From Actinomycetes bacterium (lineage in GTDB: Bacteria; Actinomycetota; Actinomycetes; JACCUZ01), in contig DASTVO010000152.1 in NCBI GenBank assembly GCA_035759075.1, positions 1 to 45,076 on the forward strand: a DNA stretch of 45,076 nt, read 5' to 3'. The position numbers were made by a program, and so were the translations under genes. The number at the start of each line of letters is the position of its first letter. The first letter of the stretch is position 1. Under the pieces are notes generated by a model. It did no database searches. It was not told the DNA's origin and saw nothing but the letters and a program-made list of their open reading frames with translations. Below, piece by piece: positions 24,775-42,665 of this stretch.

Positions 24775-24793
24775 GACCGGCTCGCAGCCGGTC
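24775..24793 (-). terminator. Possible terminator hairpin overlapping the USP stop codon
   Basis: GACCGGCT-cgc-AGCCGGTC, an 8-bp stem. The downstream U-tract is weak. Confidence 0.3.
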
Positions 24794-25646
24794 ACCGCAC
24801 CACCATCACCGGGCAGTGGGAGTGGTGGACCAGCGCCTGGCTCGTGGAGCCCAGCAGCAAGCCGGCGAAGCCGCCGGACCCGCGGGCACCGACGACGACG
24901 ATGCCTGCGGTCTCCGAGTGGAGGAGCAGCTCCTTCGCCGGCGGGTGGTCCCCCAGCACGACCTCGACCTCGACGTCGGGGTAGTCCACCCGGGCCGCGG
25001 CCAGCTCCTTCTCCACCAGGGCCCGCGCGTCCTCCTCTGCCGCGACGAGGTGGTCGCGATAGCTGCTGGCGCCCTCCTGCCGCAGCGGAACGGTGAACGA
25101 GTGGACCGCCCTCACCGGCGCGCCGAGCCGCTGGGCCAAGGCGAACGCCTCGGACACCGCGTGGTGTGACCGGTCGTGCCCGTCGATTCCCAGGACCACG
25201 GGGCCGGACCGACCGGCCTCGCCGCGGACGACGACGACCGGACAGGCGGCATGCATCGCGCATGCCACCCCCACCGACCCGAGCAGCAGCCCGGCGAAGC
25301 CTCCCAGCCCTCGGCTGCCCACCACGAGCAGCTGCGCGTTCTTCGAGCCCTCGACCAGTCGGGCAGCGGTGTCCCCGGTCACCAGGCGCGAGTCGACGTC
25401 CAGCTCGGGCGCGACCCGCCGCGCAGCGTCCACGGCATCGGCGAGGACCCGCTCCGCCTGAGCCTGCAGCCCTGCACCGGCCGGGGCGCCGGGAGCGGGG
25501 CCGAGGCTGACGCGGTAGAGCGGCCAGACCCACGCGTACTCGACCAGCAGCGGTGCGCCCCGACGCACCGCCTCGCCCGCCGCCCACCGGACCGCCTGCA
25601 GAGCGCTCTCGGACCCGTCCACACCGACCAGCACAGATCTCTCCAC
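24792..25646 (-). CDS. Universal stress protein, tandem USP domains
   Basis: Start chosen at GTG 25646 (VERSVLVGVDGSE). Two USP domains are present, each with G-x2-G-x9-G(S/T) (GSRGLGGFAGLLLGSV and GARGSGGFAGLLLGST). Confidence 0.85.
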   Translation of the reverse strand: MERSVLVGVDGSESALQAVRWAAGEAVRRGAPLLVEYAWVWPLYRVSLGPAPGAPAGAGLQAQAERVLADAVDAARRVAPELDVDSRLVTGDTAARLVEGSKNAQLLVVGSRGLGGFAGLLLGSVGVACAMHAACPVVVVRGEAGRSGPVVLGIDGHDRSHHAVSEAFALAQRLGAPVRAVHSFTVPLRQEGASSYRDHLVAAEEDARALVEKELAAARVDYPDVEVEVVLGDHPPAKELLLHSETAGIVVVGARGSGGFAGLLLGSTSQALVHHSHCPVMVVR

Positions 25647-25803
25647 GTACCGCAGGCTAGGTGAGCACGCGGGCCGCGGCGCAGGGCCGATCACCGGGCC
25701 GGCCGAGGACTTTGGTCATCCCGAGGCCCGCCCTGCGGCACTGCTGAGGGCGGCCGTCCCCCTGTGTGCTGGACCACGGGAAGCCTGCAGACGAGGAGAA
25801 CCC

Positions 25804-26694
25804 GTGGCCGCCGAGACCAGCCCAACCGTCGTCGTCGGTATGGACGGATCGGACGCCGCGCAGGCCGCGGTGGAGTACGCCGCTGACCTCGCGGCCCGGC
25901 GCCGCCTTCCGTTGCGCGTGCTGCACGCGTTCGAGGCCTCCCAGCACGAGCTGATGCCGGCCCGCGGGTGGCACCGCGACCGGCAGGAGGTTCTGCGACG
26001 CGCGGCCCAGCAGATGCTGGACCAGACCCGCGAAGTGCTCTCGATGGCCTGCCCGGACCTCGAGGTGCAGACCCAGCTCCAGCCCGGTTCGCCGGTCCAG
26101 GTGCTCGTGGAGGAGTCACGGCATGCGGACAGCATCGTGGTCGGTCGGCGGGGAGCGGGCGGGTTCACCCCGCTGCTGCTCGGGTCCACACCGTTCCACC
26201 TGTGCGCCCAGGCCAGCTGCCCCGTCGTCGCCGTGCCGGCACCGGAGGTCGTCGACCAGGAGCGGCGGGAGGTCGTGGTCGGGGTCGACGGCTCGGCCGG
26301 CGCCGAGCGCGCCCTCGAGTACGCCTTCCAGGCCGCGGCCGAGACAGGTCAGCCGCTGGTGGCGGTGCGGGTGTGGTCCGAACCCGGCCAGGTGGTGACC
26401 GGTCTGCGCATCTCCCTGGTGTCCGACCGGGACGAGGTCGAGCGCCACGAGGAGGAGCAGCTCTCCTCCGACCTGGCCTCCTGGGCCGGCAAGTTCCCGG
26501 AGGTACGGGTCGAACCGCTGGTCGTCGCCGGCCACCCCGCCGAGGTCCTGCTCTGGCGCGCCCGGACGGCGAGGCTGCTGGTCGTCGGGAGCCGAGGACG
26601 CAGCAGCCTGCGCAACGCCATGTTCGGCTCGGTCAGCCATGCCGTGGTCCACCACGCCAACGGGCCGGTCGCGGTCGTGCCGGCAGCGATCTGA
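25804..26694 (+). CDS. Universal stress protein, tandem USP domains
   Basis: 296 aa with VVVGMDGSDAA.. and ..VVGVDGSAGA. The second domain has the full nucleotide-binding loop (GSRGRSSLRNAMFGSV), while the first has a variant loop (GRRGAGGFTPLLLGST). Confidence 0.88.
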   Translation: MAAETSPTVVVGMDGSDAAQAAVEYAADLAARRRLPLRVLHAFEASQHELMPARGWHRDRQEVLRRAAQQMLDQTREVLSMACPDLEVQTQLQPGSPVQVLVEESRHADSIVVGRRGAGGFTPLLLGSTPFHLCAQASCPVVAVPAPEVVDQERREVVVGVDGSAGAERALEYAFQAAAETGQPLVAVRVWSEPGQVVTGLRISLVSDRDEVERHEEEQLSSDLASWAGKFPEVRVEPLVVAGHPAEVLLWRARTARLLVVGSRGRSSLRNAMFGSVSHAVVHHANGPVAVVPAAI

Positions 26695-26709
26695 GACAAG
26701 GAGCAAGAC

Positions 26710-27579
26710 ATGGACGTGCCAACCCCCACCGGAGCGATCGTCGTCGGCGTCGACGCGTCCGAGGACAGCGACAGAGCAGTGATATGGGCATTGGGAATGG
26801 CCGAGCCGAGCGGCACACCGGTGCACTTCGTGCACGTGCAGACCTCCGCGCCGTCGTACCTCCTGGACGAGACCGGCCGGCAGAAATGGGAGCGCGCCGG
26901 TCAAGCGATCCTCGACGCGGCCATCGAGCAGGCTGAACAGGTCCCGACCGTGCCGGTCAGCCGACAGACGATCTTCGAGCCTGGCGTGGCGACTGCCGAC
27001 GGGCTGGTGTCGGCGAGCAAGGACGCGTCGATGGTCGTCGTCGGCACCCGCGGCCACGGAGGCTTCGCCGGGCTGCTGGTGGGGTCGGTGAGCCAGCACG
27101 TCGCCCGGCACGCCGACTGCCCGGTGGCCGCGGTGCGTGCACAGGCCGACCCGCACGCGAACCGCGTCGTCGTCGGTGTCGACGACTCCGAGGGCGCCCA
27201 GGAGGCGCTGGCGCTCGCGTTCGAGATCGCCGCGCAGCACGGGGTCGGCCTGACGGCGGTCCACGCCTTTCACGCGCCGTCGCTGTACGGCCGTGGCGTG
27301 GTGCTGCCGATGCCCGGAGACGTCGGCGAGCACCTCGCCTCGGAGCAGCAGGAGCTGGCGCGCGTGCTCGCGCCGTGGGAGCAGAAGTACCCGGGCGTCC
27401 CGGTGACGCCGGAGGTCATCCCCGGCCACCCGGCCGAGGTGCTCACGCACGCGTCCGGGCGCGCCGCCCTCGTCGTCGTCGGATCGCGCGGTCGCGGGGC
27501 GTTCACCGGCCTGCTGCTCGGCTCGGTCGGTCAGCAGCTGCTGCACCTGGCTCAGTGCCCGGTACTGATCGCCCGCTGA
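26710..27579 (+). CDS. Universal stress protein, tandem USP domains
   Basis: 289 aa. An AAGGAG Shine-Dalgarno sequence lies upstream. Motifs are IVVGVDASEDS.. and GTRGHGGFAGLLVGSV / GSRGRGAFTGLLLGSV. Confidence 0.88.
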   Translation: MDVPTPTGAIVVGVDASEDSDRAVIWALGMAEPSGTPVHFVHVQTSAPSYLLDETGRQKWERAGQAILDAAIEQAEQVPTVPVSRQTIFEPGVATADGLVSASKDASMVVVGTRGHGGFAGLLVGSVSQHVARHADCPVAAVRAQADPHANRVVVGVDDSEGAQEALALAFEIAAQHGVGLTAVHAFHAPSLYGRGVVLPMPGDVGEHLASEQQELARVLAPWEQKYPGVPVTPEVIPGHPAEVLTHASGRAALVVVGSRGRGAFTGLLLGSVGQQLLHLAQCPVLIAR

Positions 27580-27669
27580 TCGAATCCCGCCTCGTCGAGC
27601 CCTGACCTGGGCCATGCTGTCGGCCACCGGACCACGGAGGTGGTCGGCACCACGGGCGGAGGTCGGTCG

Positions 27670-28353
27670 GTGGAGTGGCGGATCCTGCGCGACCTGCGCG
27701 AGGAGGACCGGGAGCGCGTGCTCACGGCAGCCACGCGCCGCCGGTTCGCCCGGGACGAGACTGTCGTGCACCAGGGTGAGCCGGGGGCTGCGTTCCACCT
27801 GCTCGCCAGCGGCCGGGTGGCCGTCCGCGTGACGACCCCGGACGGCGAGACCGTGATCCTCTCCGTCCTCTCCCCCGGCGACTTCTTCGGTGAACAGGCC
27901 CTGCTCGGACCGCGCCACCAGCGCACGGCCTCGGTGGTGGCGCTGGAGCCGGTGGAGACGCTCGCCCTCGACGCAGCACGCTTCGAGTCCCTACGGCGGG
28001 AGCAGCCCTCCGTGGAGCGGTTCCTCGTCGAGGTGCTGGCGGCACAGGTCCGACGCCTCACGGCGCACCTGGTCGAGGCGTTGCACGTCCCGGCCGAGCA
28101 GCGCACCCTGCGCCGGCTGCTCGCTCTCGCCCACCAGTACCGGACGCCGAACGGCGGCGGCCCGGTGGTCGTACCGGTCACCCAGCAGGACCTCGCCACC
28201 ATGGCGGGCACGACCCGGCCGACCGCCAACCGCGTGCTCCGCGCGATGGAGGACGCCGGCGCCCTGCGGCTCGCCCGAGGCCGGATCGAGGTGCTCGACG
28301 TGCAGGCGCTGCGCACCGAGGCCGGGGCGCACGCCGGGACGAGAAAGACCTGA
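27670..28353 (+). CDS. Crp/Fnr-family transcriptional regulator (cNMP-binding domain plus HTH)
   Basis: The cNMP-binding cassette is FGEQALLG..RTASVVA. The C-terminal HTH is TQQDLATMAGTTRPTANRVLRAME. GTG 27670 follows GGAGG by 9 nt, and GTG 27640 is the alternative start. Confidence 0.85.
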   Translation: MEWRILRDLREEDRERVLTAATRRRFARDETVVHQGEPGAAFHLLASGRVAVRVTTPDGETVILSVLSPGDFFGEQALLGPRHQRTASVVALEPVETLALDAARFESLRREQPSVERFLVEVLAAQVRRLTAHLVEALHVPAEQRTLRRLLALAHQYRTPNGGGPVVVPVTQQDLATMAGTTRPTANRVLRAMEDAGALRLARGRIEVLDVQALRTEAGAHAGTRKT

Positions 28354-28441
28354 GAAAGTCGGTTGTGTCGCGCAGCGCACAGACGAAGTCGCCTGGCCCC
28401 TGCAGTATTTCGCCCAAGCCCGGACCTACCAGGAGGACACC

Positions 28442-28654
28442 ATGAGCGAGAACGACACCACCAAGGACCAGCTCGACGACGTCGAGGGTCACGTGCTCAA
28501 GCGGCCCAGCGCTGCCGAGGTCGACGACGTCTCGGGTCACGCGCTCAAGCGGCCGTCCGCCCAGGACGAGGACGACGTCGAGGGCCACGCCCTCAAGCGG
28601 CCGTCCGCCCAGGACGAGGACGACGTCGAGGGCCACGCCCTCAAGCGTCCGTAA
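28442..28654 (+). CDS. Small acidic repeat protein (70 aa; 16-aa unit DDVEGHALKRPSAQDE, 3.7 copies)
   Basis: AGGAGG lies 7 nt upstream of ATG 28442. The product is MSENDTTKDQLDDVEGHVLKRPSAAEVDDVSGHALKRPSAQDEDDVEGHALKRPSAQDEDDVEGHALKRP. The repeats are in frame and the protein ends exactly at a unit boundary. Confidence 0.7.
   Translation: MSENDTTKDQLDDVEGHVLKRPSAAEVDDVSGHALKRPSAQDEDDVEGHALKRPSAQDEDDVEGHALKRP
28475..28651 (+). repeat. 48-nt tandem repeat (3.7 copies) inside the small CDS
   Basis: Units are 28475-28522, 28523-28570, 28571-28618 and a partial 28619-28651. Unit 4 is identical to the corresponding part of unit 3 except for one base (gcggccg versus gcgtccg). Confidence 0.9.
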
Positions 28655-28657
28655 CAA

Positions 28658-28672
28658 CCCTCCTCGGGAGGG
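28658..28672. terminator. Hairpin in the 30-nt gap between the convergent repeat-protein and S8 genes
   Basis: CCCTCC-tcg-GGAGGG. It could act as a bidirectional terminator. The stem is short and there is no clear U-tract. Confidence 0.4.
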
Positions 28673-28684
28673 CTGAGACCGTGC

Positions 28685-29491
28685 TCACGCCGTGGCGTTG
28701 TCTGCCACGGCGTGCAGCACGGTCTTCACGTGGAAGGGGGTCAGCCCGGGGTGCTTGGACAGCAGCCGGGCGATCAGACCGGCGACATGAGGGGCCGCGA
28801 AGCTGTTCCCGGTGGTCACGATGGTCCCGCCGCCCTTCCAGGCGACCGTGACGTCGATGCCGGGGGCCCCGAACTCCACCGGCGGCCGGGGGTTGTAGTC
28901 GATGCCGAACGGGTCGTGCCGGTCGTGGGCCGCGACCGAGAACACCGACGCGTACTGCGACGGGTAGCTCGGCGCCGGCACGTTGTTCACCGCGCACACC
29001 AGCATCACGTTGGCGAAGTAGGCGCGGTCGGCGAGCTCGTGAAAGAGCGCGAAGTAGTCCTCCTTGCCGGTGCTCAGTGACAGGTTGACGACCCGGAAGC
29101 CGTGGTCGATCGCCCACTCGAGGCCGGCCGCGAAGACCAGGCCCTTGCCGGTGAGGCGCTCCCCGAGGACCCGGATGCTGTGCAGACGGCACTGCGGCGC
29201 GACGGCCCGGACGATGCCGGCGCACGCGGTGCCGTGCCCGAAGAGGTCCTGGTGCGGTCCCTCGACCCGCCGGACGCCGTCCTCCTCGTCTGGGTCGTAC
29301 GACATGGCCACGGCCGACGTGACGGCACCGACCAACGGGTGGTCGGCGTCCACGCCGCTGTCGATGACCGCCACGTCGACGCCGGAACCGTCCGCGCCGC
29401 CCCAGGCCCACTCCCGGGTGATGCCCTGGGGGAAGGGCCGGACAGACGTCAGGGTGGCCGGGTCGAAGAGCTCCGACCAGGCCGGTCTCAG
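28685..29491 (-). CDS. S8 family (subtilisin-like) serine peptidase without signal peptide or propeptide
   Basis: The catalytic triad contexts are intact: VAVIDSGVDADHP (Asp), HGTACAG (His) and GNSFAAPHVAG (Ser). No ATG, GTG or TTG lies in frame near the domain start. The 5' end is set at CTG 29491-29489, which overlaps the GAF gene's TGA, so it is uncertain (see findings). Confidence 0.8.
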   Translation of the reverse strand: MRPAWSELFDPATLTSVRPFPQGITREWAWGGADGSGVDVAVIDSGVDADHPLVGAVTSAVAMSYDPDEEDGVRRVEGPHQDLFGHGTACAGIVRAVAPQCRLHSIRVLGERLTGKGLVFAAGLEWAIDHGFRVVNLSLSTGKEDYFALFHELADRAYFANVMLVCAVNNVPAPSYPSQYASVFSVAAHDRHDPFGIDYNPRPPVEFGAPGIDVTVAWKGGGTIVTTGNSFAAPHVAGLIARLLSKHPGLTPFHVKTVLHAVADNATA

Positions 29492-30252
29492 CTCAGACGT
29501 CGTCCCCGCCCCCTGACGGCGGACTGCCTCACGTACGTCAGCAGCGACTCGACGACACCTCTCGCGAGCGCGCGCTCGGCCGACCCCATGCGGTCGAGGT
29601 GCCCGAGCAGGGCGGCCAGGGCCAGCAGGTCCTTGTCCGGTTCGCCCGCTCGGTCCGCGGCCGCTGCCAGCGCCTCGGCCAGCGGCGTCTCGGGCGCGGC
29701 AGCTGCGACGGCCTCCAGGACCGACCTGCCGAGCTCGGAGAACGCCCGAGAGTTCTCGATCGCCAACGCCGCCTGGTCGGCGAACAGGGAGAGCAGTCGC
29801 ATGTCCTGCTCGGCACCGGGCCGGGAGGCGTCGCGGTCGAGCACCTCGATGACGCCCAGGACCCGGCGCGGGCTGGTGACCGGTACCGCGAGGATGGCCG
29901 TCGGCACGTAGCCGGTGGACTCGGCGACGTCCGTAGCGAAGCGGGCGTCCTGCTGGAGGTCGGCGATCGAGATGGGCTGCTCCGACATCACGACCCATCC
30001 GGCGATGCCCTGCCCGGCCGGGATGCGGAGATCGACGACGTCGTCGGCGCCCGTGCCGGCGGCGGTGGTGAAGACCAGCTCGGACTGGTCGTCGGTCAGC
30101 AGCGCCAACGAGCACGCCTGGGCGCCGAACAGCTCCCGCGCGGCCTCGGTGATGCTGTGCAGCAGCTCGCTCGTCCCGACCGGTGCCAGGGCGGGCCCGA
30201 CCGCCGTCAGGACCCGGCTGAGGTCCTCGAGGAGCTCCCCGTCCTCGCTCAC
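29488..30252 (-). CDS. GAF domain-containing protein
   Basis: 254 aa with a GTG start. The GAF core (ACSLALL..LVFTTAAG..GIAGWVV..PISIADL..AILAVPV..GVIEVLD) is followed by an alpha-helical C-terminal region of about 80 aa. Confidence 0.85.
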   Translation of the reverse strand: MSEDGELLEDLSRVLTAVGPALAPVGTSELLHSITEAARELFGAQACSLALLTDDQSELVFTTAAGTGADDVVDLRIPAGQGIAGWVVMSEQPISIADLQQDARFATDVAESTGYVPTAILAVPVTSPRRVLGVIEVLDRDASRPGAEQDMRLLSLFADQAALAIENSRAFSELGRSVLEAVAAAAPETPLAEALAAAADRAGEPDKDLLALAALLGHLDRMGSAERALARGVVESLLTYVRQSAVRGRGRRLS

Positions 30253-30256
30253 CGGG

Positions 30257-30676
30257 TCAGCGCGTCCTGGCCTCCGCAGCGCGCAGATGCCGGCAGAGGC
30301 CGAGCAGAAGGGCGTGAGCCATCTTCGGGTGCGCCTCGAGGAGCGGCGCGAAGTTCCAGGCCGGCAGTGACAGCGTCCGCACCGTGCCGTCCGGGACGAT
30401 CGTGGCTGACCGCGGCTTGCCGTCGAGCAGTGAGATCTCCCCGAAGTAGTCGCCGGGCCCGAGCGTGCCCTTCACTTCGCCGTGCTGCTTCACCGTGACC
30501 GTCCCGTCGAGGATCAGGTGGAAGCCGACCCCGCTCTTGCCTTCTTCGGCGAGCTCGCCACCGGCGTCATGGGTCACCTCACGGGACCGGCTCAGGACGT
30601 CACGAAGCTCCTTGTCCGACAGGCCCTGGAACAGGGGGACGGAACGAAGCCGCTCGAGCATCTCCGTGTCAGCCAT
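30257..30676 (-). CDS. Stand-alone cyclic-nucleotide-binding domain protein
   Basis: 139 aa from ATG 30676, with LFQGLSDKELRDV...GDYFGEISLLDGKPRSATIVP, a phosphate-binding cassette containing Arg. It has no output domain. Its stop lies 4 nt before the GAF gene start. Confidence 0.85.
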   Translation of the reverse strand: MADTEMLERLRSVPLFQGLSDKELRDVLSRSREVTHDAGGELAEEGKSGVGFHLILDGTVTVKQHGEVKGTLGPGDYFGEISLLDGKPRSATIVPDGTVRTLSLPAWNFAPLLEAHPKMAHALLLGLCRHLRAAEARTR

Positions 30677-30833
30677 CAGCCACCCATCTCGACGTGTCCG
30701 GTGCCACCAGCCATCGCGGCACAGCGAACGCTGCCACCGCGGACCACCGCGCGCAACCACTTCTGATCTCTGCGCGAGCCCTGGTCCCGGAGATCAACCA
30801 GACCGCAGACGCCCAACCGTCATCGGCCGCATC

Positions 30834-33380
30834 ATGTGGGGCGTGCGCACCGACCTGCCGACCGGGACGGTGACGTTCCTGTTCACCGACATCGAGGGCT
30901 CGACCCGGCTGCTGCACGAGCTGGGGAGCGAGGCGTACGCCGCGGCGCTGCTCGAGCACCGGCGGCTGGTGCGTGCCGCCTGCGCTGCGTACGACGGCGT
31001 CGAGGTCGACACCCAGGGCGACGCGTTCTTCGTCGCCTTCCCGACTGCCCCAGGCGCGGTGCTGGCTGCCGCGCGCATCGTCGAGGACCTACGCCCGGGT
31101 CCGATCCGGCTCCGGATGGGGCTGCACACCGGGACGCCGTACGTCACCGCCGAGGGTTACGTCGGTGAGGACGTGCACCGTGCTGCGCGGATCGCGGCGT
31201 GCGGACACGGCGGACAGGTGCTTGTGTCATCGGCCACCGCCGCCCTGCTGCGACCCGGCACGCTGCCCGACGGGCTGGACCTGCGCGACCTAGGTGACCA
31301 CCGGCTCAAGGACCTCTCCGCCGCCGAACGCATCCACCAGCTGGGCGACGACGACTTCGCGCCGCTGAAGAGCCTGCACCGCACGAACCTCCCGGTGCCG
31401 GCGACGCCGTTTCTCGGCCGTACCCGGGAGCTGGCGGAGGTGACGGATCTGCTGTCTCGCGTGGATGTCCGGCTGCTGACTCTGACCGGCCCCGGCGGGA
31501 CGGGGAAGAGCCGACTGGCCCTGCAGGCCGCGGCCGAGGTGTCGGACCGCTTTCCCGGCGGGGTGTTCTGGGTGCCACTGGCACCGCTGCGTGACCCCGG
31601 CCTCGTGCTCGCGACGGCCGCTGCCGCGGTGGGAACCGGGGAGGACCTGCGGGACCACATCGGGGACAAGTCGATGCTCCTGCTGCTCGACAACTTCGAG
31701 CACCTCATGGGAGCGACCGCTGACCTCCACAGCCTCATGGCCACCTGCCCGAAGGTCGTCCTGCTCGTGACCAGCCGCGAGACCCTGCGCCTGCCGGGCG
31801 AGCAGGCCTACCCGGTGCCGCCGCTCCGCGGCGACGAGGCCGTCGAGCTCTTTGCCGCCCGGGCACGCGCGGCCGACCCGCACTTCGTCCCCGGCCCCAC
31901 GCTCGTGCTGCTCACCGAGCGGCTCGACCGGCTCCCGCTGGCCATCGAGCTTGCCGCGGCGCGCGTCCGGGTCCTCACGATGGATCAGCTCGTCGACCGC
32001 CTGGACCGCCGGCTCGACCTGCTCAAGGCCGGACGTGGCGCCGACCCCCGCCAGCAGACACTTCGCGCGACGATCGAGTGGAGCCACGATCTGCTCGACG
32101 ACGAGGAGAGACGGCTGTTCGCCCGGCTCGGCGTGTTCTCCGGAGGCTGCACGCTGGAGTCCGCGGAGAGGGTCTGCGATGCCGACCTCGACGTGCTGGA
32201 GTCGCTCGTCGACAAGAGTCTGGTACGTGTTCGCGACGGTGACCGCTTCTGGATGCTCGAGACGATCCGTGAGTACGCCGTCGAACGTCTCCGGGACAGT
32301 GCGGAGCTGGCCGAGCTTCGGCGCCGCCACGCCGAACACTTCCTCGCCCTGGGCGAGGAGGCGGCGCCGCACCTGCGAGGCTCGGCGGCCGCGCGGTGGC
32401 TCGACCGGCTCGACGACGAGCACGACAACGTGCGGGCCGCGCTGGAGTGGTTCGCCCGCGAGCAGCGGGTGGACGAGCATCTGCGCCTGGCCGCATCGCT
32501 CGTCGAGTTCTGGCTGAGCCGCGGGTTCCTGAGCGAGGGCCGTCGCATCCTGGCCGACGCTCTTGCAGCAGGCGACGGTGAGCCGGGGTCGCGGGCCCGC
32601 GCGCTCGACGGGGCCGCGGTCCTCGCCGTGTCCGCAGGCGACACGGGCGCGGCACGGTCGCCCGCGGCCGAGGCACTGGCGATCCACCAACGGCTCGGCG
32701 ACGAGGCGGCCCGTGCCGAGTCCCTGTGGACCCTCGGGTACGTGGCCGTCGAGGACAAGGACTGGTCGGCGGCGCAGAAGGCAGTGGAGGAGAGCACGAG
32801 CATCTTCAGGAGGGTGGGCGACGTCCCGAGCCTTCTCGGCGCGAGCCGCACGCTGGCGTGGATCCACCACATGCGCGGCGATCTCGACACGGCACGCCGG
32901 CTGCACGAGCAGAACCTCGCGCTGGCGAGAGGCGCGGGCCATCAGGCGGTCCAGGCGGCGATCCTCGGCTCGCTGGGGAACATCGCAACGGAGCAGGGCC
33001 GCCTGGCCGATGCCGCGACGATGCTCCGTGAGAACCAGCGGCTGGTCGAGGCCCTCGGGGACCGCACGGCCATCGTCGTGAACCTGGCCCGAATCGCTCG
33101 GCTGCTCGCCCTCCTCGGCGAGCGGGAGACGGCGGCCGCTCTGCTGGCCTGCTCGGAGGAAGCGAGCCGGACCATGGGCGGGTGGGAAGCCTGGGCGGGC
33201 GTCCTGAACGACGGGACGCGGGCGATGCTGGAGGGTCTCCCCCAGGACCTCTGGGAGAGAGCCGCCCGACGCGGGGTCCGGCTCGCGCCGGAAGACGCAG
33301 CTCGCGAGGCGCTCTCGGTGGCGGCGCAAGCTCTCGAGCCCGAGCATCGGGCCCACGGTTCCAGCGGGGAGCAGTGCTGA
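30834..33380 (+). CDS. Class III nucleotidyl cyclase domain fused to STAND (NB-ARC-like) P-loop ATPase and TPR array
   Basis: 848 aa from ATG 30834. The cyclase fold is TFLFTDIEGST..QGDAFFVAF..GEDVHRAARI..GGQVLVS. The Walker A motif is GPGGTGKS and Walker B is LLLLDNFEH. The C-terminal roughly 350 aa are repetitive helical, TPR-like. Confidence 0.88.
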   Translation: MWGVRTDLPTGTVTFLFTDIEGSTRLLHELGSEAYAAALLEHRRLVRAACAAYDGVEVDTQGDAFFVAFPTAPGAVLAAARIVEDLRPGPIRLRMGLHTGTPYVTAEGYVGEDVHRAARIAACGHGGQVLVSSATAALLRPGTLPDGLDLRDLGDHRLKDLSAAERIHQLGDDDFAPLKSLHRTNLPVPATPFLGRTRELAEVTDLLSRVDVRLLTLTGPGGTGKSRLALQAAAEVSDRFPGGVFWVPLAPLRDPGLVLATAAAAVGTGEDLRDHIGDKSMLLLLDNFEHLMGATADLHSLMATCPKVVLLVTSRETLRLPGEQAYPVPPLRGDEAVELFAARARAADPHFVPGPTLVLLTERLDRLPLAIELAAARVRVLTMDQLVDRLDRRLDLLKAGRGADPRQQTLRATIEWSHDLLDDEERRLFARLGVFSGGCTLESAERVCDADLDVLESLVDKSLVRVRDGDRFWMLETIREYAVERLRDSAELAELRRRHAEHFLALGEEAAPHLRGSAAARWLDRLDDEHDNVRAALEWFAREQRVDEHLRLAASLVEFWLSRGFLSEGRRILADALAAGDGEPGSRARALDGAAVLAVSAGDTGAARSPAAEALAIHQRLGDEAARAESLWTLGYVAVEDKDWSAAQKAVEESTSIFRRVGDVPSLLGASRTLAWIHHMRGDLDTARRLHEQNLALARGAGHQAVQAAILGSLGNIATEQGRLADAATMLRENQRLVEALGDRTAIVVNLARIARLLALLGERETAAALLACSEEASRTMGGWEAWAGVLNDGTRAMLEGLPQDLWERAARRGVRLAPEDAAREALSVAAQALEPEHRAHGSSGEQC

Positions 33381-33464
33381 CGGGGTCGAACGAGCGGTGA
33401 GGCAGCCCTTTTGCGCCTCTCCCGACCCGTCTCGGTCCGAGCATGTGACATCCTCTGCGCCAGC

Positions 33465-34952
33465 ATGGTGAGACGGGGGGGTGGCGTGGCCGGGACGACG
33501 CTTGCACTGGCGCGGCTCGTGCTGGTGGCCGGGCTGACGGTCTCGACGACGCTGGTGGCGTCACCGGTCGGCGCCGAACCGACCGTCGGCCGAACCGCGA
33601 TCTTCATGCAGCCGTATCCGACGACCGTCGGTGACGCCGGCAGCTCACCCTTCCCGTCCCGGGTCGACGTCTCGGGAGTCACCGGCGATGTCCTCGACGT
33701 CGACGTGACGCTGTCCGGCGTCGAGCACCAGTGGCCGGACGACCTCGACGTGGTGCTGGTGGCACCCGACGGCACGGCAGCGACGGTCATGAGCGACGTC
33801 GGCGGCGACGACCAGACGCCTGCGACCGGCACGGCGTTGACCTTCGACGACGACGCCTCGGGCTCCGTTCCCCCCGGACTCCTCAGCGGCCGGTACCGTC
33901 CGCATGACGACGACTCGGATCCCGGCGACCCGGACCTCGAGGGTGCGGACGCCACCTTCGCCCAGCTGGCCGCCGCCCCGGTGAACGGCACCTGGGAGCT
34001 GTACGTCAACGACGACACCTATGACTTCGACGGTCGCATCGCCTCCTGGTCGCTCAGCTTCCAGGTGACGGATCGGCCGATGATCACGGGCCCGGCGTCC
34101 GGGTCGGTCCTCCCCGGCAGCACGATCCCGGTTCGCGGGACCGGCTCACCAGGCGCCACGGTCTACGTCGGAGCCGCTCAGCAGCCGGCCCGGACCGTCA
34201 CGGTGGCCGCCGACGGCACCTGGGCGGTCGATCTCACCGGTCTCGCAGACGGGACCCACCTCGTGACCGCCTCGAGCGGACCGGGCCGGACGGGGTCTTC
34301 CACCACCGTGCGCCTCGACAGCACTGCACCGACCGGGACGCTGGTCCTGCGCACGGTACGAGGCGGTCCGGAGGTGACCTCCAGCCGCAGGGTCTACCTG
34401 GAGGTCGCGGCCGGCGAGCCGCTGCGGGGGATCCGGGTCAGCAACGACGGCGCCGCGTACGGGCCGCTGGTGCCGGTGGTTCCCGGCGGGGTCGCATGGC
34501 TCCTGTCCGAGCAGGACGGCACCCGACGCGTCTTCGTCCAGCTCGAGGACCTGGTGGGCAACGTCTCCAACGGCTACCTCAGCGACACCGTGACGTTGGA
34601 CCGGGTGGCCCCGCGCATCCTCCGGAGCTCACCGCGAGCCGGAGCTGTCGGCGTTCGCCGCGACAAGGTCATCACGGCCCGTTTCGACGACTTCGTCACG
34701 CCGAACAGCGGCGTCAGCCCGTCCTACCTCATCCGTGTGTTCCGGGCAGGTTCAGACCGGCCGCTCCGTGCCACCGTCCGCTACGACCCGGCGACGGCGA
34801 CCGTCCGGGCTCTGCCGCACCGGCCGCTGCGTCCGCGGACGCGGTTCAAGGTCGTGGTCAGCGGGTTCGAGGACGCGGCGGGCAACTGGCTCGACCAGGA
34901 CCCGGCCAAGGCGGGAACGCAGCCGGGAGTGTGGCGATTCCGGACCCGGTGA
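33465..34952 (+). CDS. Secreted protein: proprotein-convertase P-domain plus bacterial Ig-like domains
   Basis: Start at MVRRGGGVAGTTLALARLVLVAGLTVSTTLVASPVGA, which looks like a signal peptide. P-domain motifs are DVDVTLSGVEHQWPDDLDVVLVAPDGT and NGTWELYVNDDTYDFDGRIASWSLSF. Ig-like and SbsA_Ig-like repeats follow. Confidence 0.8.
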   Translation: MVRRGGGVAGTTLALARLVLVAGLTVSTTLVASPVGAEPTVGRTAIFMQPYPTTVGDAGSSPFPSRVDVSGVTGDVLDVDVTLSGVEHQWPDDLDVVLVAPDGTAATVMSDVGGDDQTPATGTALTFDDDASGSVPPGLLSGRYRPHDDDSDPGDPDLEGADATFAQLAAAPVNGTWELYVNDDTYDFDGRIASWSLSFQVTDRPMITGPASGSVLPGSTIPVRGTGSPGATVYVGAAQQPARTVTVAADGTWAVDLTGLADGTHLVTASSGPGRTGSSTTVRLDSTAPTGTLVLRTVRGGPEVTSSRRVYLEVAAGEPLRGIRVSNDGAAYGPLVPVVPGGVAWLLSEQDGTRRVFVQLEDLVGNVSNGYLSDTVTLDRVAPRILRSSPRAGAVGVRRDKVITARFDDFVTPNSGVSPSYLIRVFRAGSDRPLRATVRYDPATATVRALPHRPLRPRTRFKVVVSGFEDAAGNWLDQDPAKAGTQPGVWRFRTR

Positions 34953-36507: not shown

Positions 36508-36536
36508 GCGCCTGAGGACAGGGGGGACGGGTCGAC

Positions 36537-37613
36537 GTGGCACGCCTGCGACGGGTGGACTGCGCCGGCCCGGGGATCCGCCGGGTGCGCCGCGGCAAGG
36601 GGTTCTCCTACCTGTGGTCGGACGGCAGCAAGGTGGAGGATCCCGACACCCTGGCGCGCATCGCCGGGCTGGTCATCCCGCCCGCGTGGACGGACGTGTG
36701 GATCTGCCCGCACCCGCGCGGCCACATCCAGGCCCTCGGCACCGACGCGGCGGGACGCCGGCAGTACCGCTACCACGACGAGTGGCGGGCGCAGCGGGAC
36801 GCCGAGAAGCACCAGCGGGTCCTGGACTTCGCGAAGCGGCTACCGACCGCGCGCAAGGTCGTCGCGGAGCACCTCGGGCAGCGTGGTCTGACCCGCGACC
36901 GCGTCCTGGCGGCGGCCTTCCGGCTGCTGGACCTCGGGTTCTTCCGCGTCGGTGGCGAGTCCTACGCCGAGGCCAACGGGACGTACGGGCTGGCGACGAT
37001 GCGCCGCGAGCACGTCACGGTCACGGGTGACCTCGTCGTCTTCGACTACGTCGCGAAGAGCGGCAAGCAGCGGGTGCAGGCGGTGGTCGACGAGAGCGTC
37101 CGCAAGGTCGTCGTGGCCCTGCTGAAGCGGGACGACCCGAGCAAGGAGCTGCTCGCGTACCGGGACCGCAACGGCTGGCACGACATCACCAGTGCCGACA
37201 TCAACGCCTACCTGCGCGAGGTCGTCGGCGAGGAGGTGAGCGCCAAGGACTTCCGGACCTGGCACGCCACGGTGCTGACCGCGGTGGGCCTCGCCGTCTC
37301 CACCCGGGCCCCGACGTCGGTGAGCGGCCGCAAGCGGGCCGTCAACCGTGTCGTCAAGGAGGTGGCGGAGTACCTCGGCAACACCCCGGCGGTGTGCCGC
37401 TCGTCCTACATCGACCCGCGGATCCTCGACCTCTACGACGACGGCAGCACCATCGCGTCCTCACTCGAGCGGCTCGGCGCCGACGCGGACTTCGGCCAGC
37501 CGGCGACGCACGGCAAGGTCGAGGCAGCAGTCCTGCGGCTGCTGCGCACCCCGGCCAGGGCCGGCAACCGCCGCCGGGCCGCGAACGGGCGGGCCGCCAG
37601 GAAGGCCGCGTAG
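36537..37613 (+). CDS. DNA topoisomerase IB (poxvirus-like bacterial type)
   Basis: 358 aa with GFSY..DG..V.D..TL.RI..L.IPPAW..VWI and GRRQYRYH. The catalytic contexts are SAKDFRTWHAT and the tyrosine in CRSSYIDP. Confidence 0.88.
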   Translation: MARLRRVDCAGPGIRRVRRGKGFSYLWSDGSKVEDPDTLARIAGLVIPPAWTDVWICPHPRGHIQALGTDAAGRRQYRYHDEWRAQRDAEKHQRVLDFAKRLPTARKVVAEHLGQRGLTRDRVLAAAFRLLDLGFFRVGGESYAEANGTYGLATMRREHVTVTGDLVVFDYVAKSGKQRVQAVVDESVRKVVVALLKRDDPSKELLAYRDRNGWHDITSADINAYLREVVGEEVSAKDFRTWHATVLTAVGLAVSTRAPTSVSGRKRAVNRVVKEVAEYLGNTPAVCRSSYIDPRILDLYDDGSTIASSLERLGADADFGQPATHGKVEAAVLRLLRTPARAGNRRRAANGRAARKAA

Positions 37614-39754: not shown

Positions 39755-42583
39755 TCAGAGCGTGCCGATCGCGCGCTCGCGCAGGGCCCGTCGGTGCGCC
39801 TCGAGGGCGACCAGCTCGCCGAAGAGACGGTTGTACTCCGCCACCTGCTCGACCGGGTTCAGCCGCTGGAGCCGGGACTTCACCTCGGCGATCCGTCGTG
39901 TCGCGGCCAGCTCCTCCAGCCGGGCGAGCACCTCTGTCGCGTACCGGGTGAGGCCCTGCTCCTCCGACGGCAGCGCCTCCACCGCGAGCTCGCGCACCAT
40001 CGCGCGCACGGCGTCGTCGGCGGCCTCGTCGCCCACACGCGACACCCAGGCGGCGCCCCCCGTGCCGGCTGCGGCAACACCTCCGGCGGCGCGGACCGCG
40101 TCGCGGACCGAGGAGTACGCGGGGGCGGTGAACACCGAGTCGTCGAGCTCGTCGAAGGTGGCCGCCGCCAGCGCCGGCGCCTGCAGGACGACCTTGAGGC
40201 TGTCCCGCTCCACCCGCAGCGCGGGGTCGTGGGGGTCGGGCGCGGCGGCTCGGGCCGACCGCTCGCCGTTCGCCGGCGCCGCGGCGCCCGGGGCAGGCGT
40301 ACGTCGCGCGGTGCCGCCCGCCTGCGCAACCGCCCGGGCCACCGGCTCGACCTCCATGCCCAGCCAGCCGGCCAGCGTGCGCGCGTACTCCGGACGCAGC
40401 GACTGGTCGCGGATGGAGGCGACCACGGGCGCCGCGGCCTGCAGCGCGGAGACGCGGCCCTCGGGGGTGTCGAGGTCGAACCGGCCGATGGTCGAGCGCA
40501 GGGCGAACTCGAAGAGCGGCACCCGGCGGGCGATCAGGTCGCGGACCGCCGTGTCGCCCTTGTGCTGGCGCAGCTCGCAGGGGTCCATGCCGCTGGGCTC
40601 GACCGCGACGAAGGTCTGCGTGACGAACTTCTGGTCGTCCTGGAACGCCTTGAGCGCGGCGTTCTGGCCCGCCGAGTCGCCGTCGAAGGTGAAGACCACC
40701 TCGCCGCGGAACTCGTTCTGGTCCATCAGCAGCCGGCGCAACACCTTGATGTGCTCGTCGCCGAACGCCGTGCCGCAGGTCGCGATCGCCGTCTCGACGC
40801 CGGCGAGGTGACAGGCCATCACATCGGTGTAGCCCTCGACGACAACGGCCTGCATACGGCGCGCGATCTCGCGCTTGGCGAGGTCGACGCCGTAGAGCAC
40901 GGTCGACTTCTTGTAGATCGGAGTCTCGGGGGTGTTGAGGTACTTCGGCCCCTGGTCGTCGTCGAAGAGCCTGCGGGCGCCGAACCCGATGACCTCGTCG
41001 GACATGTTGCGGATCGGCCAGATCAGCCGGCCCCGGAACCGGTCGTACACGCCGCCACCCTGGCGCTGGCTGACCAGCCCGCCGGCCAGGAGCTCCTGGT
41101 CGGTGAACCGGCGGCCGCGCAGGTGGGTGGTCAGCGCGTCCCAGCCCTGTGGCGCGAACCCGACGCCAAACTTCTCCGCCGCGGCCTGGTCGAAGCCGCG
41201 CTCGGCGAGGAACTGGCGGCCCACCTTGGCGCCCGGGCCGGCGAGCTGTTCGACGAAGAACTCCGCGGCCGCCGTGTGCGCCTCGATCAACCGGGACCGC
41301 TGTCCCTGCTGCCGTCCGGGGGTGACGCCGCCCTCCTCGTAGCGCAGGGTCACGCCGGTGCGGCCGGCGAGGCGCTCGATGGTCTCGGCGAAGGACAGGT
41401 GGTCGATCTTCATGACGAAGGAGATGACGTCGCCGCCTTCCCCGCAGCCGAAGCAGTTCCCCGTGAGGATGTTGTCTTCCAGCACGAAGGCGTGTCCGTG
41501 CTCGACCTCGGCGCAGAAGACTTCCTCGACCCGGTCGCTCGGCTCCACCGACTGCACGACCCACCCGCGACGGGCGAAGGCCTTGTGCTGCGAGGCGAAC
41601 CGGAACCGGTGCTGCTCGAGCAGGAAGAAGTCCTCCGGAAGGCTGTCGTTGACCAGGTGCAGGCGGTGAACCGCGGACGGTTCGCGGCCGGGGAAGCCCT
41701 CGCGGATCTGCGTCGTGATCCCGTACGTGGAAATGCCCAGCCGCGTGCACATGTTGCGGACGAACTCGAGATCGCCTCGATCAGCCGAGTTGAGGATCAC
41801 GGTCCCGTCCTCAGCAACGCAGCCATCTGCCGCGAAGTAGCCGGCGAGCCACCCGAGCAGGTACGCGGCCGACTCGTCGAGGCTCGGCAGGTCCTTGAAG
41901 TACGCCGGGAGCCCGAACGCGAGCGTCCGGTCCGGGTCGGTGTACTGGGCTGTCGGGCTCAGCGGGAACCATTTGAGAAGTGCGTCGTCCTTGCCGGGTG
42001 CGAACATCGCGACGCTGCCTTGTCCGAGCCGCGTGCCGTCCCCATAGGTGAAGCCATGCGCCACCCCGAAGGCCGACAGCGTCGTACGCGCGATCCGCGA
42101 CCGCGGGTACACGTACGCGAGCCGGTCTCCCGTCTTGAGGTGCTTGCTCAGTACCTCGCGTGTCCCCTGCCGGGCCGCGCCGGACCTGACGAACCACCGA
42201 TGCTCATCGGTGGCGTAGATCTCCTTCTTCTGCCGGTTCCGGGTCAGCGTGATCCGCATGAGAGGCATGACGCCATAGGACCGGAACGGGGCTGTGACCC
42301 AGTCGCCGCGGCGGTTGAGCACGCGGTGCTCCGAGCCCGCGAGCTCGGAGATCGGCCGCGGCCCGTCCCAGGTCAGGACGCGGGTCTCGCCCGCCAGGCA
42401 GTGGAAGGACCCGACCGAGGGGCGTACCGAGAAGGACGGGCTCTTCTCGTCGTGGAACGGGCAGAGTCCCTTGAGGTTGCCGCCTCCGGCGGGGCGGAGC
42501 GTCACCACGTCGCCGATCACGTCGGCGATGTCCGCGCGCTCCTTGACGAGGGCGACGTCCTCGTCCCGGATCCGGCCTGCCAC
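39755..42583 (-). CDS. dnaG: DNA primase DnaG, interrupted by an intein
   Basis: 942 aa with a GTG start. The zinc-finger halves CPFHDEKSPSF..SFH and CFGCGEGGDVISF are separated by 315 aa. TOPRIM (EGYTDV, DGDSAG) and the C-terminal DnaB-interaction region are present. Confidence 0.95.
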   Translation of the reverse strand: MAGRIRDEDVALVKERADIADVIGDVVTLRPAGGGNLKGLCPFHDEKSPSFSVRPSVGSFHCLAGETRVLTWDGPRPISELAGSEHRVLNRRGDWVTAPFRSYGVMPLMRITLTRNRQKKEIYATDEHRWFVRSGAARQGTREVLSKHLKTGDRLAYVYPRSRIARTTLSAFGVAHGFTYGDGTRLGQGSVAMFAPGKDDALLKWFPLSPTAQYTDPDRTLAFGLPAYFKDLPSLDESAAYLLGWLAGYFAADGCVAEDGTVILNSADRGDLEFVRNMCTRLGISTYGITTQIREGFPGREPSAVHRLHLVNDSLPEDFFLLEQHRFRFASQHKAFARRGWVVQSVEPSDRVEEVFCAEVEHGHAFVLEDNILTGNCFGCGEGGDVISFVMKIDHLSFAETIERLAGRTGVTLRYEEGGVTPGRQQGQRSRLIEAHTAAAEFFVEQLAGPGAKVGRQFLAERGFDQAAAEKFGVGFAPQGWDALTTHLRGRRFTDQELLAGGLVSQRQGGGVYDRFRGRLIWPIRNMSDEVIGFGARRLFDDDQGPKYLNTPETPIYKKSTVLYGVDLAKREIARRMQAVVVEGYTDVMACHLAGVETAIATCGTAFGDEHIKVLRRLLMDQNEFRGEVVFTFDGDSAGQNAALKAFQDDQKFVTQTFVAVEPSGMDPCELRQHKGDTAVRDLIARRVPLFEFALRSTIGRFDLDTPEGRVSALQAAAPVVASIRDQSLRPEYARTLAGWLGMEVEPVARAVAQAGGTARRTPAPGAAAPANGERSARAAAPDPHDPALRVERDSLKVVLQAPALAAATFDELDDSVFTAPAYSSVRDAVRAAGGVAAAGTGGAAWVSRVGDEAADDAVRAMVRELAVEALPSEEQGLTRYATEVLARLEELAATRRIAEVKSRLQRLNPVEQVAEYNRLFGELVALEAHRRALRERAIGTL
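41456..42400 (-). mobile_element. Intein (315 aa) with LAGLIDADG homing-endonuclease domain inside dnaG
   Basis: Block A is CLAGETRVL, block B is ATDEHRWF, and the LAGLIDADG motifs are HGFTYGDGT and LAGYFAADG. Blocks F/G are VFCAEVEHGHAFVLEDNILTGN, followed by the +1 Cys. Removing aa 62-376 restores the canonical FHCFGCGEGGD. Confidence 0.85.
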
Positions 42584-42665
42584 GGTCGCGCAGTCTACGT
42601 GCGCCGGGCGAAGCGCCCGCCCGCCTCACCCACAGCCGGGCCGCCTGGTCCGGGCTGTGGTGGGG

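Follow-up and report, generated by a model that had tools for sequence, protein, structure and literature searches.

A DVEGH-repeat protein encoded with a Crp-type regulator, a GAF protein and a cytoplasmic subtilase in two soil phyla: a possible dedicated multi-site protease substrate

The contig DASTVO010000152.1 (assembly GCA_035759075.1) of an Actinomycetes bacterium from the JACCUZ01 lineage of Actinomycetota, taken over its positions 1 to 45,076 (45,076 nucleotides, nt, of the forward strand) and called the window below, harbors a short gene coding for an acidic protein of 70 amino acids (aa) composed of tandem repeats hallmarked by the pentapeptide DVEGH. This protein, referred to as R, is encoded downstream of a Crp/FNR-family regulator, and its gene converges with that of a subtilisin-type peptidase (S8), which is in turn immediately preceded by the gene of a GAF-domain protein. 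The features of the locus are as follows (coordinates, strand, feature, and the underlying evidence in brackets):

27640-28353, plus strand: Crp/FNR-family regulator (PF00027 E = 2.3e-24; PF13545, HTH_Crp_2, E = 2.9e-18)
28366-28381, no strand assigned: putative Crp-type operator TGTCGCGCAGCGCACA, 2 mismatches to TGTCG-N6-CGACA (palindrome enrichment upstream of R genes)
28403-28408, plus strand: possible -10 hexamer CAGTAT, 37 nt from the start of the box (offset shared with other promoters)
28431-28436, plus strand: Shine-Dalgarno sequence AGGAGG, 5 nt ahead of the ATG (read off the sequence)
28442-28654, plus strand: R gene, DVEGH-repeat protein, 70 aa (translation, GC pattern, identical protein elsewhere, family)
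28475-28652, plus strand: repeat array, period 48 nt (score of 230 in Tandem Repeats Finder, family logo)
28658-28672, no strand assigned: CCCTCC-TCG-GGAGGG, a perfect inverted repeat in the gap between the stop codons of R and S8 (sequence; z-score -0.09)
28685-29503, minus strand: S8A peptidase, ~268-272 aa, lacking a prodomain (PF00082 E = 3.5e-27, alignment to subtilisin BPN')
29488-30252, minus strand: GAF protein, 254 aa, immediately upstream of S8 (GAF_2 E = 2.9e-20)
30465-33380, plus strand: fusion of a nucleotide cyclase, an AAA16 (STAND) NTPase and tetratricopeptide repeats (TPR), divergent from GAF-S8 (domain matches)

The translated R gene starts with an 11-aa leader, MSENDTTKDQL, followed by the units DDVEGHVLKRPSAAEV, DDVSGHALKRPSAQDE and DDVEGHALKRPSAQDE and by the incomplete copy DDVEGHALKRP, after which the stop codon is located. 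The array comprises 3.7 copies; the unit of 16 aa includes D-D-V-(E/S)-G-H, the basic stretch (A/V)LKRP and a linker, and a single nt out of 33 distinguishes copy 3 from copy 4. The protein has a pI of 4.5 and a net charge of -10. The GC content at the three codon positions (0.80/0.37/0.94; 72.6% GC in the window overall) matches that of the real genes of the window, so the open reading frame (ORF) looks like a coding sequence. All three occurrences of the DVEGH-coding pattern in the window fall within this ORF, at an expectation of 0.03. An independent contig from farmland soil codes for an identical protein of 70 aa, and the gene order there is likewise Usp-Usp-Crp-R-S8 (Usp, universal stress protein). 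Together with the existence of a family of such proteins (see below), this confirms that R is a real gene, as an earlier note on this DNA had claimed for the acidic repeat ORF with its AGGAGG.

The contig of the locus L001 (here and below, L numbers and P0092 stand for related loci) is ~97.5% identical to the window. It displays 0 differences over positions 28442-28684 (243 nt encompassing the R gene and the 3' spacer), where ~6 would be expected; the flanking Usp, Crp and S8 genes differ by 2.4-2.8%. Strong constraint, codon selection or a recent gene conversion could possibly account for this invariance. The inverted repeat situated between the convergent genes may function as a bidirectional terminator; the hairpin at 28658-28672 is as stable as shuffled sequence (the z-score of -0.09 above), and a consensus scan gave no terminator.

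The S8 gene is convergent with R, as had been noted earlier, with its stop codon at 28685-28687, i.e., 30 nt from the R stop codon. Its product is a subtilase (S8A) with the Peptidase_S8 domain, the only one found by Pfam, and an intact catalytic apparatus: Asp (29360-29362), His (29234-29236), oxyanion Asn (28982-28984) and Ser (28802-28804). The best matches in the PDB are the subtilisin BPN' variants lacking the calcium loop, and the positions 154/156/166 of the S1 pocket, as judged by sequence alignment to BPN' only, are Asn/Val/Ser, hence not acidic. Neither an I9 prodomain nor a P-domain nor a hydrophobic segment was found in S8; the family motif (L/R)PAWSE(P/A)F is located just past its start. 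Among the NCBIfam models, the scores were 111.8 bits for QhpE (cutoff 165), 109 for mycosin (278.75) and 28 for PatA/PatG (421). Accordingly, the assignment of S8 to mycosins (TIGR03921) was rejected on the score and on the lack of a hydrophobic segment, that to QhpE (NF049966) on the score and on the lack of recurring qhp or radical-SAM genes in the neighborhoods, and that to the PatA/PatG protease (TIGR03895) on the score and on the lack of extra conserved genes in ~199 loci.

The start of S8 is peculiar. In the window, no ATG, GTG or TTG is present within 13 codons ahead of PAWSE, and the same is true for 44/139 related S8 loci; the start candidates are ACG at 29503-29498 or CTG at 29491, the latter overlapping the GAF stop codon. 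The stop codon of GAF, TGA or TAA, shares nucleotides with the Leu codon of LRPAW, and the S8 frame is -1 with respect to that of GAF. The near-cognate ACG (ATC in some loci), with the Shine-Dalgarno-like GAAAGGCGG before it, takes the position of the ATG/GTG of other clades. Thus, S8 could possibly be translated via non-AUG initiation, reinitiation or frameshifting; where GAF and S8 meet, inspection by eye revealed no slippery site of the canonical type for a -1 frameshift. As a separate observation, S8 contains the sequence V-E-G-P-H (29237-29251, residues ~85-89; RRVEGPHQDLFGHGT) just upstream of the catalytic His. This (V/L)EGPH is kept in the actinobacterial clade and absent in Chloroflexota, and its likeness to the repeat motif, with a Pro inserted, is probably a coincidence.

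The GAF protein comprises a GAF domain and a helical C-terminal region of ~80 aa. Its nearest relatives in the PDB are the cyclic nucleotide (cNMP)-binding GAF domains of CyaB2 (E = 1.5e-21) and of the phosphodiesterases (PDE) PDE2 and PDE5. In one related locus (L159:5461-6798, metagenome contig Ga0224568_1000078), GAF and S8 are fused in frame into a 460-aa protein with the junction AAVTSSLRPAWSD and a shortened C-terminal helical region of GAF. Unless it stems from an assembly indel, this fusion suggests, in the manner of a Rosetta stone, that GAF and S8 form a physical unit. The third protein belongs to the Crp/FNR family by its cNMP_binding and Crp-type helix-turn-helix domains, by the intact phosphate-binding cassette FGE...RTA (27883-27948) and by a candidate 5-6-5 palindromic operator; its true start is probably near 27670. 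The cyclase-STAND-TPR protein is an accessory present in some loci and might supply the cNMP signal. Segments resembling a signal peptide or a transmembrane helix were not detected in the R, S8, GAF and Crp proteins of the window, in line with what had been remarked before on R and S8.

The distribution of R was explored in a set with a single genome for each GTDB species, which was scanned for stretches coding for two DVEGH motifs at a distance of 21-51 nt. The scan was biased toward high-GC codons, and the detection of R relied on motif regular expressions. At least 119 genome loci were recovered, ~69 from Actinomycetota and ~46 from Chloroflexota by record title. The former include Geodermatophilus, Nocardioides, Marmoricola, Aeromicrobium, Naasia, Jatrophihabitans, Frankiaceae, Gaiellaceae and Solirubrobacterales, and the latter are mainly Limnocylindria. 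A profile search in 1.84 billion representative proteins returned at least 349 clusters (50% identity) at E <= 1e-3. A direct homology search with R yielded just two relatives sharing nothing but the DDVEGH repeats, a low number explained by the short query and the very large database.

The notion that R belongs to no described family held throughout: no significant family was found in Pfam, NCBIfam or PADLOC, and the PDB sequence search returned nothing at E <= 10. A sub-threshold match to PF21627 was dismissed as composition-driven. As to known defence systems, PADLOC returned generic domain matches only, and the literature search on the DVEGH-type motif and on the GAF/subtilisin/Crp combination gave nothing relevant. 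The one RefSeq/GenBank example checked, the Nocardioides member WP_157538559.1, is named "hypothetical protein".

The members of the family are small proteins with 2-14 tandem units. The logo built from 450 non-identical units of 107 proteins features the core (D/E)(D/E)(D/E)-D-V-E-G-H, with V in 92% of units (otherwise T), E in 95% and G in 97% (otherwise A); the conservation of the motif Asp is imposed, since it was fixed by the search pattern. The His is nearly invariant (~97% in a relaxed scan). After it come a stretch of about five residues enriched in R, K and G and then a free linker extending up to the next acidic run. The spacers are hypervariable, 16 aa being the most frequent spacing, in the window as well. 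The C-terminus is mostly situated 4-6 residues past the last His, which bears out the earlier proposal that the unit is functional including the residues after His. At the motif, synonymous codons vary (GAG/GAA; GGC/GGT/GGG/GGA; GTC/GTG), indicating selection on the protein rather than on a DNA motif. The family is devoid of Cys and almost devoid of aromatic residues, hence it is probably disordered; judging by sequence, R is a cytoplasmic, probably disordered tandem-repeat protein.

The motif itself is not immutable. The closest relative of the window system (L121:803-1000, minus strand; S8 86% identical) displays DVEGN in all three repeats, whereas L165 harbors four copies of D(S/A/T)EGQ, and L166 harbors EGQ and EGM. 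In distant S8-GAF loci (L185:4508-5100, L192, L194:308-1240, L195:4595-5070 and P0092), the repeat core is (E/D)-V/A-E-G/A-H, and the spacers are very different, either AKP-rich or KAFTKAFT. Variant repeats encountered near S8 include PEVEGH(A/R)MKP, SAEVEGHAMHG, DSDE(A/V)EAHKM, EDAEGHVHAPGV and DEDTSGHVHIKPG; some of the variant proteins share a helical leader, LKKLSALRxTLxxxERxLLDxM.

Apart from this, a second architecture was found in Chloroflexota (L065:2180-2773, plus strand; L045, L053, L056, L084, L085): proteins of ~180-210 aa carry two DVEGH sites in the context DVEGHALxLRLPxAxxAxxFRRxLLAAG and, past these, a hydrophobic and likely transmembrane segment. In L065, the gene is convergent with S8 and has a perfect TGTCG-N6-CGACA box. 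In addition, many family members have a conserved C-terminal extension past the last DVEGH, namely WMPDAGSSMRLAKARNSDIEREARQHQLANEARQ...KRTHQKG in Chloroflexota (L015, L025, L058, L103, L116) and the short VQPPRDLDIER in Actinomycetota (L003, L017, L071, L078, L092). Both share ...DIER, and neither is matched by Pfam.

The R genes have conserved neighborhoods. The scan matches were fixed, arbitrary 8-kb blocks, so that the counts of partners are lower bounds, and co-occurrence is expressed as raw counts ignoring the kinship among genomes. In a tblastn search with the window proteins, homologues were found for S8 in 83, for GAF in 81 and for the Crp-type regulator in 78 of the at least 119 R loci, with all three together in 60. 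In the same loci, the Usp genes of the window were matched once and weakly, and the P-domain protein encoded in the window not at all. The reverse search, with an S8 alignment against metagenomes, gave more than 593 relatives, of which the best 80 were examined. GAF was located directly upstream of S8 on the same strand wherever the upstream flank reached at least 700 nt. A strict DVEGH-type R was present in 15 of the 24 well-flanked S8 loci, and variant repeat proteins in several others. Among the 101 loci possessing both S8 and R, R is located within 400 nt of GAF-S8 in 63: immediately upstream on the same strand, operon-like, in 31 and convergent, as in the window, in 13.

Thus, R, Crp, GAF and S8 constitute a conserved four-gene module of two soil phyla, and the tie between R and S8 proposed in the earlier note, together with the co-occurrence of R with GAF and cNMP-binding genes, is strongly positive from the R side and from the S8 side. 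Clustering of the ORFs of ~199 loci revealed no recurring partner beyond S8, GAF, Crp and an occasional cyclase-STAND-TPR protein (homologues labelled in ~28 ORFs of the 199 related loci). An apparent "cluster 0" was dropped as it consisted of alternative-frame ORFs lying over the S8/GAF genes in high-GC DNA. For lack of recurrence, neither the Usp genes nor the P-domain protein were counted among the members of the module. The former are three tandem-domain genes (24792-27579) beside the Crp gene and represent local context. The latter (33411-34952, plus strand), to which relevance had been ascribed before, carries partial P_proprotein and Big_5/Big_6 domains and no S8 domain; it has no homologue in the related loci and is unrelated to the module.

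The R promoters share a palindrome. The box TGTCG-N6-CGACA (up to one mismatch) was found upstream of 56/99 R genes. Of its 180 matches in 1.32 Mb of related loci, 103 are situated within 330 nt upstream of R; Crp is preceded by 14 and GAF by 10. The unlinked "orphan" R genes and the transmembrane-anchored DVEGH protein of L065 carry the box too, suggesting a small regulon. A further box 23 nt downstream is found in many of the R promoters; in the window, a half-site aGTCG is found ~22 nt downstream, and the distance of the box from R is typical of the family. In several single-box promoters, a -10-like hexamer (CATGAT, CACGAT, CAGTAT) occurs at an identical offset of 37 nt from the box start. 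This would place the box center near -42, i.e., in the geometry of a class II activator, as deduced from the sequences.

We consider R to be the Crp-activated, dedicated substrate that a GAF-gated S8 cuts repeat by repeat, and assign a probability of about 0.5 to this interpretation. Starting from the gene, its family, the motif, the linkage and the operator motif described above, we infer the activation, the cNMP ligand, the gating by GAF, the cleavage and its site as follows. The Crp-type factor, probably in the cyclic nucleotide-bound form, would activate the R gene from the TGTCG-N6-CGACA box. GAF and S8 would operate as a ligand-gated cytoplasmic protease, following the example of GAF-regulated phosphodiesterases and cyclases, and R would be cut once per repeat at or beside DVEGH. 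The best guess is a cut after His, with V-E-G-H occupying P4-P1, which would convert the window R into ~16-residue peptides, and the 4-6-residue tail past the last His would fill the P' subsites. In subtilases generally, P4 is hydrophobic, P3 exposed, P2 small and P1 selective. The substitutions tolerated in the motif (V/T/I/A; E/Q/S/T/A/V; G/A; H, rarely N/Q/M) fit this logic if the cut is made after His.

The fate of the products can be envisaged in two ways. The released ~16-residue peptides might be the product proper; alternatively, intact R might be a protectant or a store removed by the gated protease, as in the case of SASP-gamma and GPR (see below). In a more specific version, a cNMP, made in some cases by an adjoining STAND-type cyclase, would both induce R via Crp and open the GAF-gated S8, and the peptides ending in ...DVEGH would act as intracellular effectors or messengers. 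We regard this peptide-signalling version as tentative and as rather unlikely.

Several observations weigh against cleavage of R by S8 under Crp and GAF control. The gene linkage fits just as well with R acting as an inhibitor or decoy, or binding to GAF or Crp as their ligand. The compositional constraint covers ~13/16 residues, more than the typical footprint of a subtilisin. The residues occupying the His position of R and the S1 rim of S8 showed no clear co-variation: the pairing of N with S in L121 is suggestive, but it is contradicted by that of H with S in L159. About a quarter of the well-flanked S8-GAF loci are devoid of a recognizable R, and R genes without linkage exist as well. In the clade of the window, S8 has an ambiguous start codon, the candidates being non-canonical. 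Finally, the window box has 2 mismatches, and a scan with the sigma-70 consensus gave no promoter.

The competing explanations share part of this evidence. If R were a multivalent regulator, i.e., a pseudo-substrate, inhibitor or sponge of S8, or a ligand or scaffold of GAF or Crp acting via DVEGH, the R-S8-GAF-Crp linkage would be explained equally well. The multivalency and a constraint wider than a protease site would suit avidity-based binding, and S8, lacking the I9 prodomain, might need an inhibitor or a chaperone in trans. It is generally known, however, that disordered short linear motifs are normally cleaved in a protease cleft and that the effective protein inhibitors of subtilases are rigid scaffolds. 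Furthermore, 2-14 repeats with hypervariable spacers suit a consumable substrate better than a stoichiometric regulator, hence we deem this role unlikely. One can also suppose that the linkage is meaningless and R is a stand-alone hydrophilin or stress protein of the Crp regulon which happens to reside beside a GAF-S8 operon. Indeed, R is hydrophilic and repetitive like GsiB or late embryogenesis abundant (LEA) proteins, three Usp genes are found in its neighborhood in the window, and boxed orphan R genes exist away from S8. Still, R is encountered beside GAF-S8 in two phyla and several gene orders far beyond chance, with S8 in ~70% of the 8-kb pieces, while such a gene is expected perhaps once per genome. 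The related loci show no recurrence of the Usp genes, and a bulk protectant role alone leaves an invariant pentapeptide amid free sequence unexplained, which makes the stand-alone role quite improbable.

Two further proposals stem from the earlier note, and both have lost ground. The Asp/Glu/His-rich unit was suggested to bind metal; in an extended form, R would be a metal-binding accessory of S8, including an amino-terminal Cu(II)/Ni(II)-binding (ATCUN) site E-G-H exposed by a cut between V and E. The ~97% conservation of His next to acidic residues speaks for this, as does the fact that X-X-His arising from such a cut would satisfy the definition of ATCUN, the two positions before His being variable. 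Nevertheless, the His is replaced by Asn in all repeats of L121 and by Gln or Met in L165/L166, so that position 3 of the supposed free N-terminus is not invariably His, and this N-terminus would itself depend on the hypothetical V-E cut. No metal-homeostasis genes recur in the neighborhoods, and there is one His per 16 residues and no Cys. With these natural DVEGN, xEGQ and xEGM variants at hand, metal binding becomes highly improbable. The other proposal viewed R as a multi-copy pro-peptide cut at Lys-Arg by a kexin/furin-like S8 enzyme similarly to the yeast alpha-factor; the peptides would then be secreted as signals. It can draw on KR in every unit of the window R, on the adjoining S8 gene and the real S8-R linkage, and on the basic residues that follow His in 93% of units, 38/71 of the short-tailed members ending in R or K. 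Across the family, by contrast, a dibasic pair occurs in 142/586 units (24%) and KR in 57/586 (10%), with consistent dibasic pairs in 24/126 proteins only; the conserved part is (D/E)n-D-V-E-G-H. S8 is a subtilisin-type S8A enzyme free of a P-domain, with Asn/Val/Ser by BPN' alignment at the S1 positions. The P-domain protein of the window is absent from the related loci, Pro at P1' is unfavorable for kexins, and neither a signal peptide nor a conserved transporter or exporter was found. We therefore rate secretion of Lys-Arg-processed pheromones as the least probable of the explanations considered.

Several known systems resemble the module in part. The cyanobactin pair PatE/PatA shares with it a ribosomal precursor of tandem cassettes, short recognition sequences flanking hypervariable segments, and an S8 protease encoded alongside. 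PatA cuts after the Ser of G-(L/V)-E-(A/P)-S, and both this site and the V-E-G-H site proposed for R have a hydrophobic P4 and Glu at P3. Unlike the cyanobactin clusters, the R module is devoid of a heterocyclase, a macrocyclase, DUF domains and Cys/Ser/Thr-rich cores, its partners being GAF and Crp. With the yeast alpha-factor and the kexin/furin (S8B) enzymes, the module has in common a multi-copy precursor and an S8-clan protease; the P-domain, the acidic S1 pocket, the conserved dibasic site and the secretory pathway are lacking.

The gamma-type small acid-soluble spore proteins (SASP) of Bacillus are small, hydrophilic, repetitive and encoded by several genes per genome, and their sole strongly conserved part is the pentapeptide recognized by the protease; this protease, GPR, is made alongside SASP and stays inactive until a signal arrives. 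R and S8 share with this pair the repetitive hydrophilic protein, the conserved pentapeptide and, as proposed here, the dedicated protease. At the same time, there is no sequence homology, GPR is not a subtilase, and the R module is linked to Crp and GAF in Actinomycetota and Chloroflexota, whereas SASP/GPR belong to Bacillus and to the sporulation sigma factors.

QhpE is a minimal cytoplasmic subtilisin-like protease removing the leader peptide of QhpC. It is the best NCBIfam match of S8 (over positions 2-211 of 219), and both enzymes are small, cytoplasmic and prodomain-less, with a peptide encoded nearby. The intracellular subtilisin protease (ISP) of Bacillus has no signal peptide, and its active site is blocked by a short N-terminal extension with LIPY/F. 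S8 is cytoplasmic, but its short conserved N-terminal motif reads (L/R)PAWSE(P/A)F; ISP structures are outside the best 60 PDB matches of S8. The order in which a GAF domain precedes a coupled catalytic partner is shared with PDE2/5/6 and CyaB1/2, and in L159 the two are fused; the difference is that the enzyme here would be a protease and, in most genomes, is a separate polypeptide.

The nearest published concept is an actinobacterial system of a small diverging precursor and a dedicated zincin-like metallopeptidase (Kaur, Burroughs, Iyer, Aravind, eLife 2020; PMC7159879). Its peptides are of the FxSxx-COOH, RxD or acidic C-terminal type, a radical-SAM enzyme is often present, and linkage to a CRP-like cNMP-sensing factor and STAND/TPR NTPases is sometimes observed; this system includes neither an S8-GAF pair nor DVEGH repeats. 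A classical precursor of peptides made by ribosomes and then modified post-translationally (RiPP) was rejected for R: no modification enzyme recurs, and the family is free of Cys. Overall, the logic of a dedicated protease with a multi-site precursor is known, but the components and their combination found here are undescribed.

Elsewhere in the window, two features outside the module deserve mention. The ORF of the DnaG primase (39755-42625, minus strand, 956 aa) has a LAGLIDADG_3 match that covers residues 255-305, past the zinc finger and ahead of the catalytic core, and probably marks an intein. A bacterial type IB topoisomerase with the Topoisom_I and Top1B_N_bact domains is encoded at 36516-37613 on the plus strand.

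The findings define an unannotated protein family of at least 349 clusters at 50% identity and a four-gene module with no described function, common to two major soil phyla. Carriers are available in culture (Aeromicrobium panaciterrae, Marmoricola, Nocardioides tweenelious, Geodermatophilus), and the predictions on the cleavage motif and the operator are explicit. If the proposed mechanism is true, S8 would be the first protease, as far as known, under a GAF sensor and a rare bacterial example of a cytoplasmic subtilase whose multi-site substrate is dedicated to it and genetically linked; the cyclic-nucleotide signalling of actinomycetes would then be tied to regulated proteolysis or peptide production. 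Should the peptides turn out to be messengers, the module would represent a bacterial cytoplasmic counterpart of prohormone processing and a kind of peptide signalling sharing no homology with the known RiPP, quorum-sensing or defence systems.

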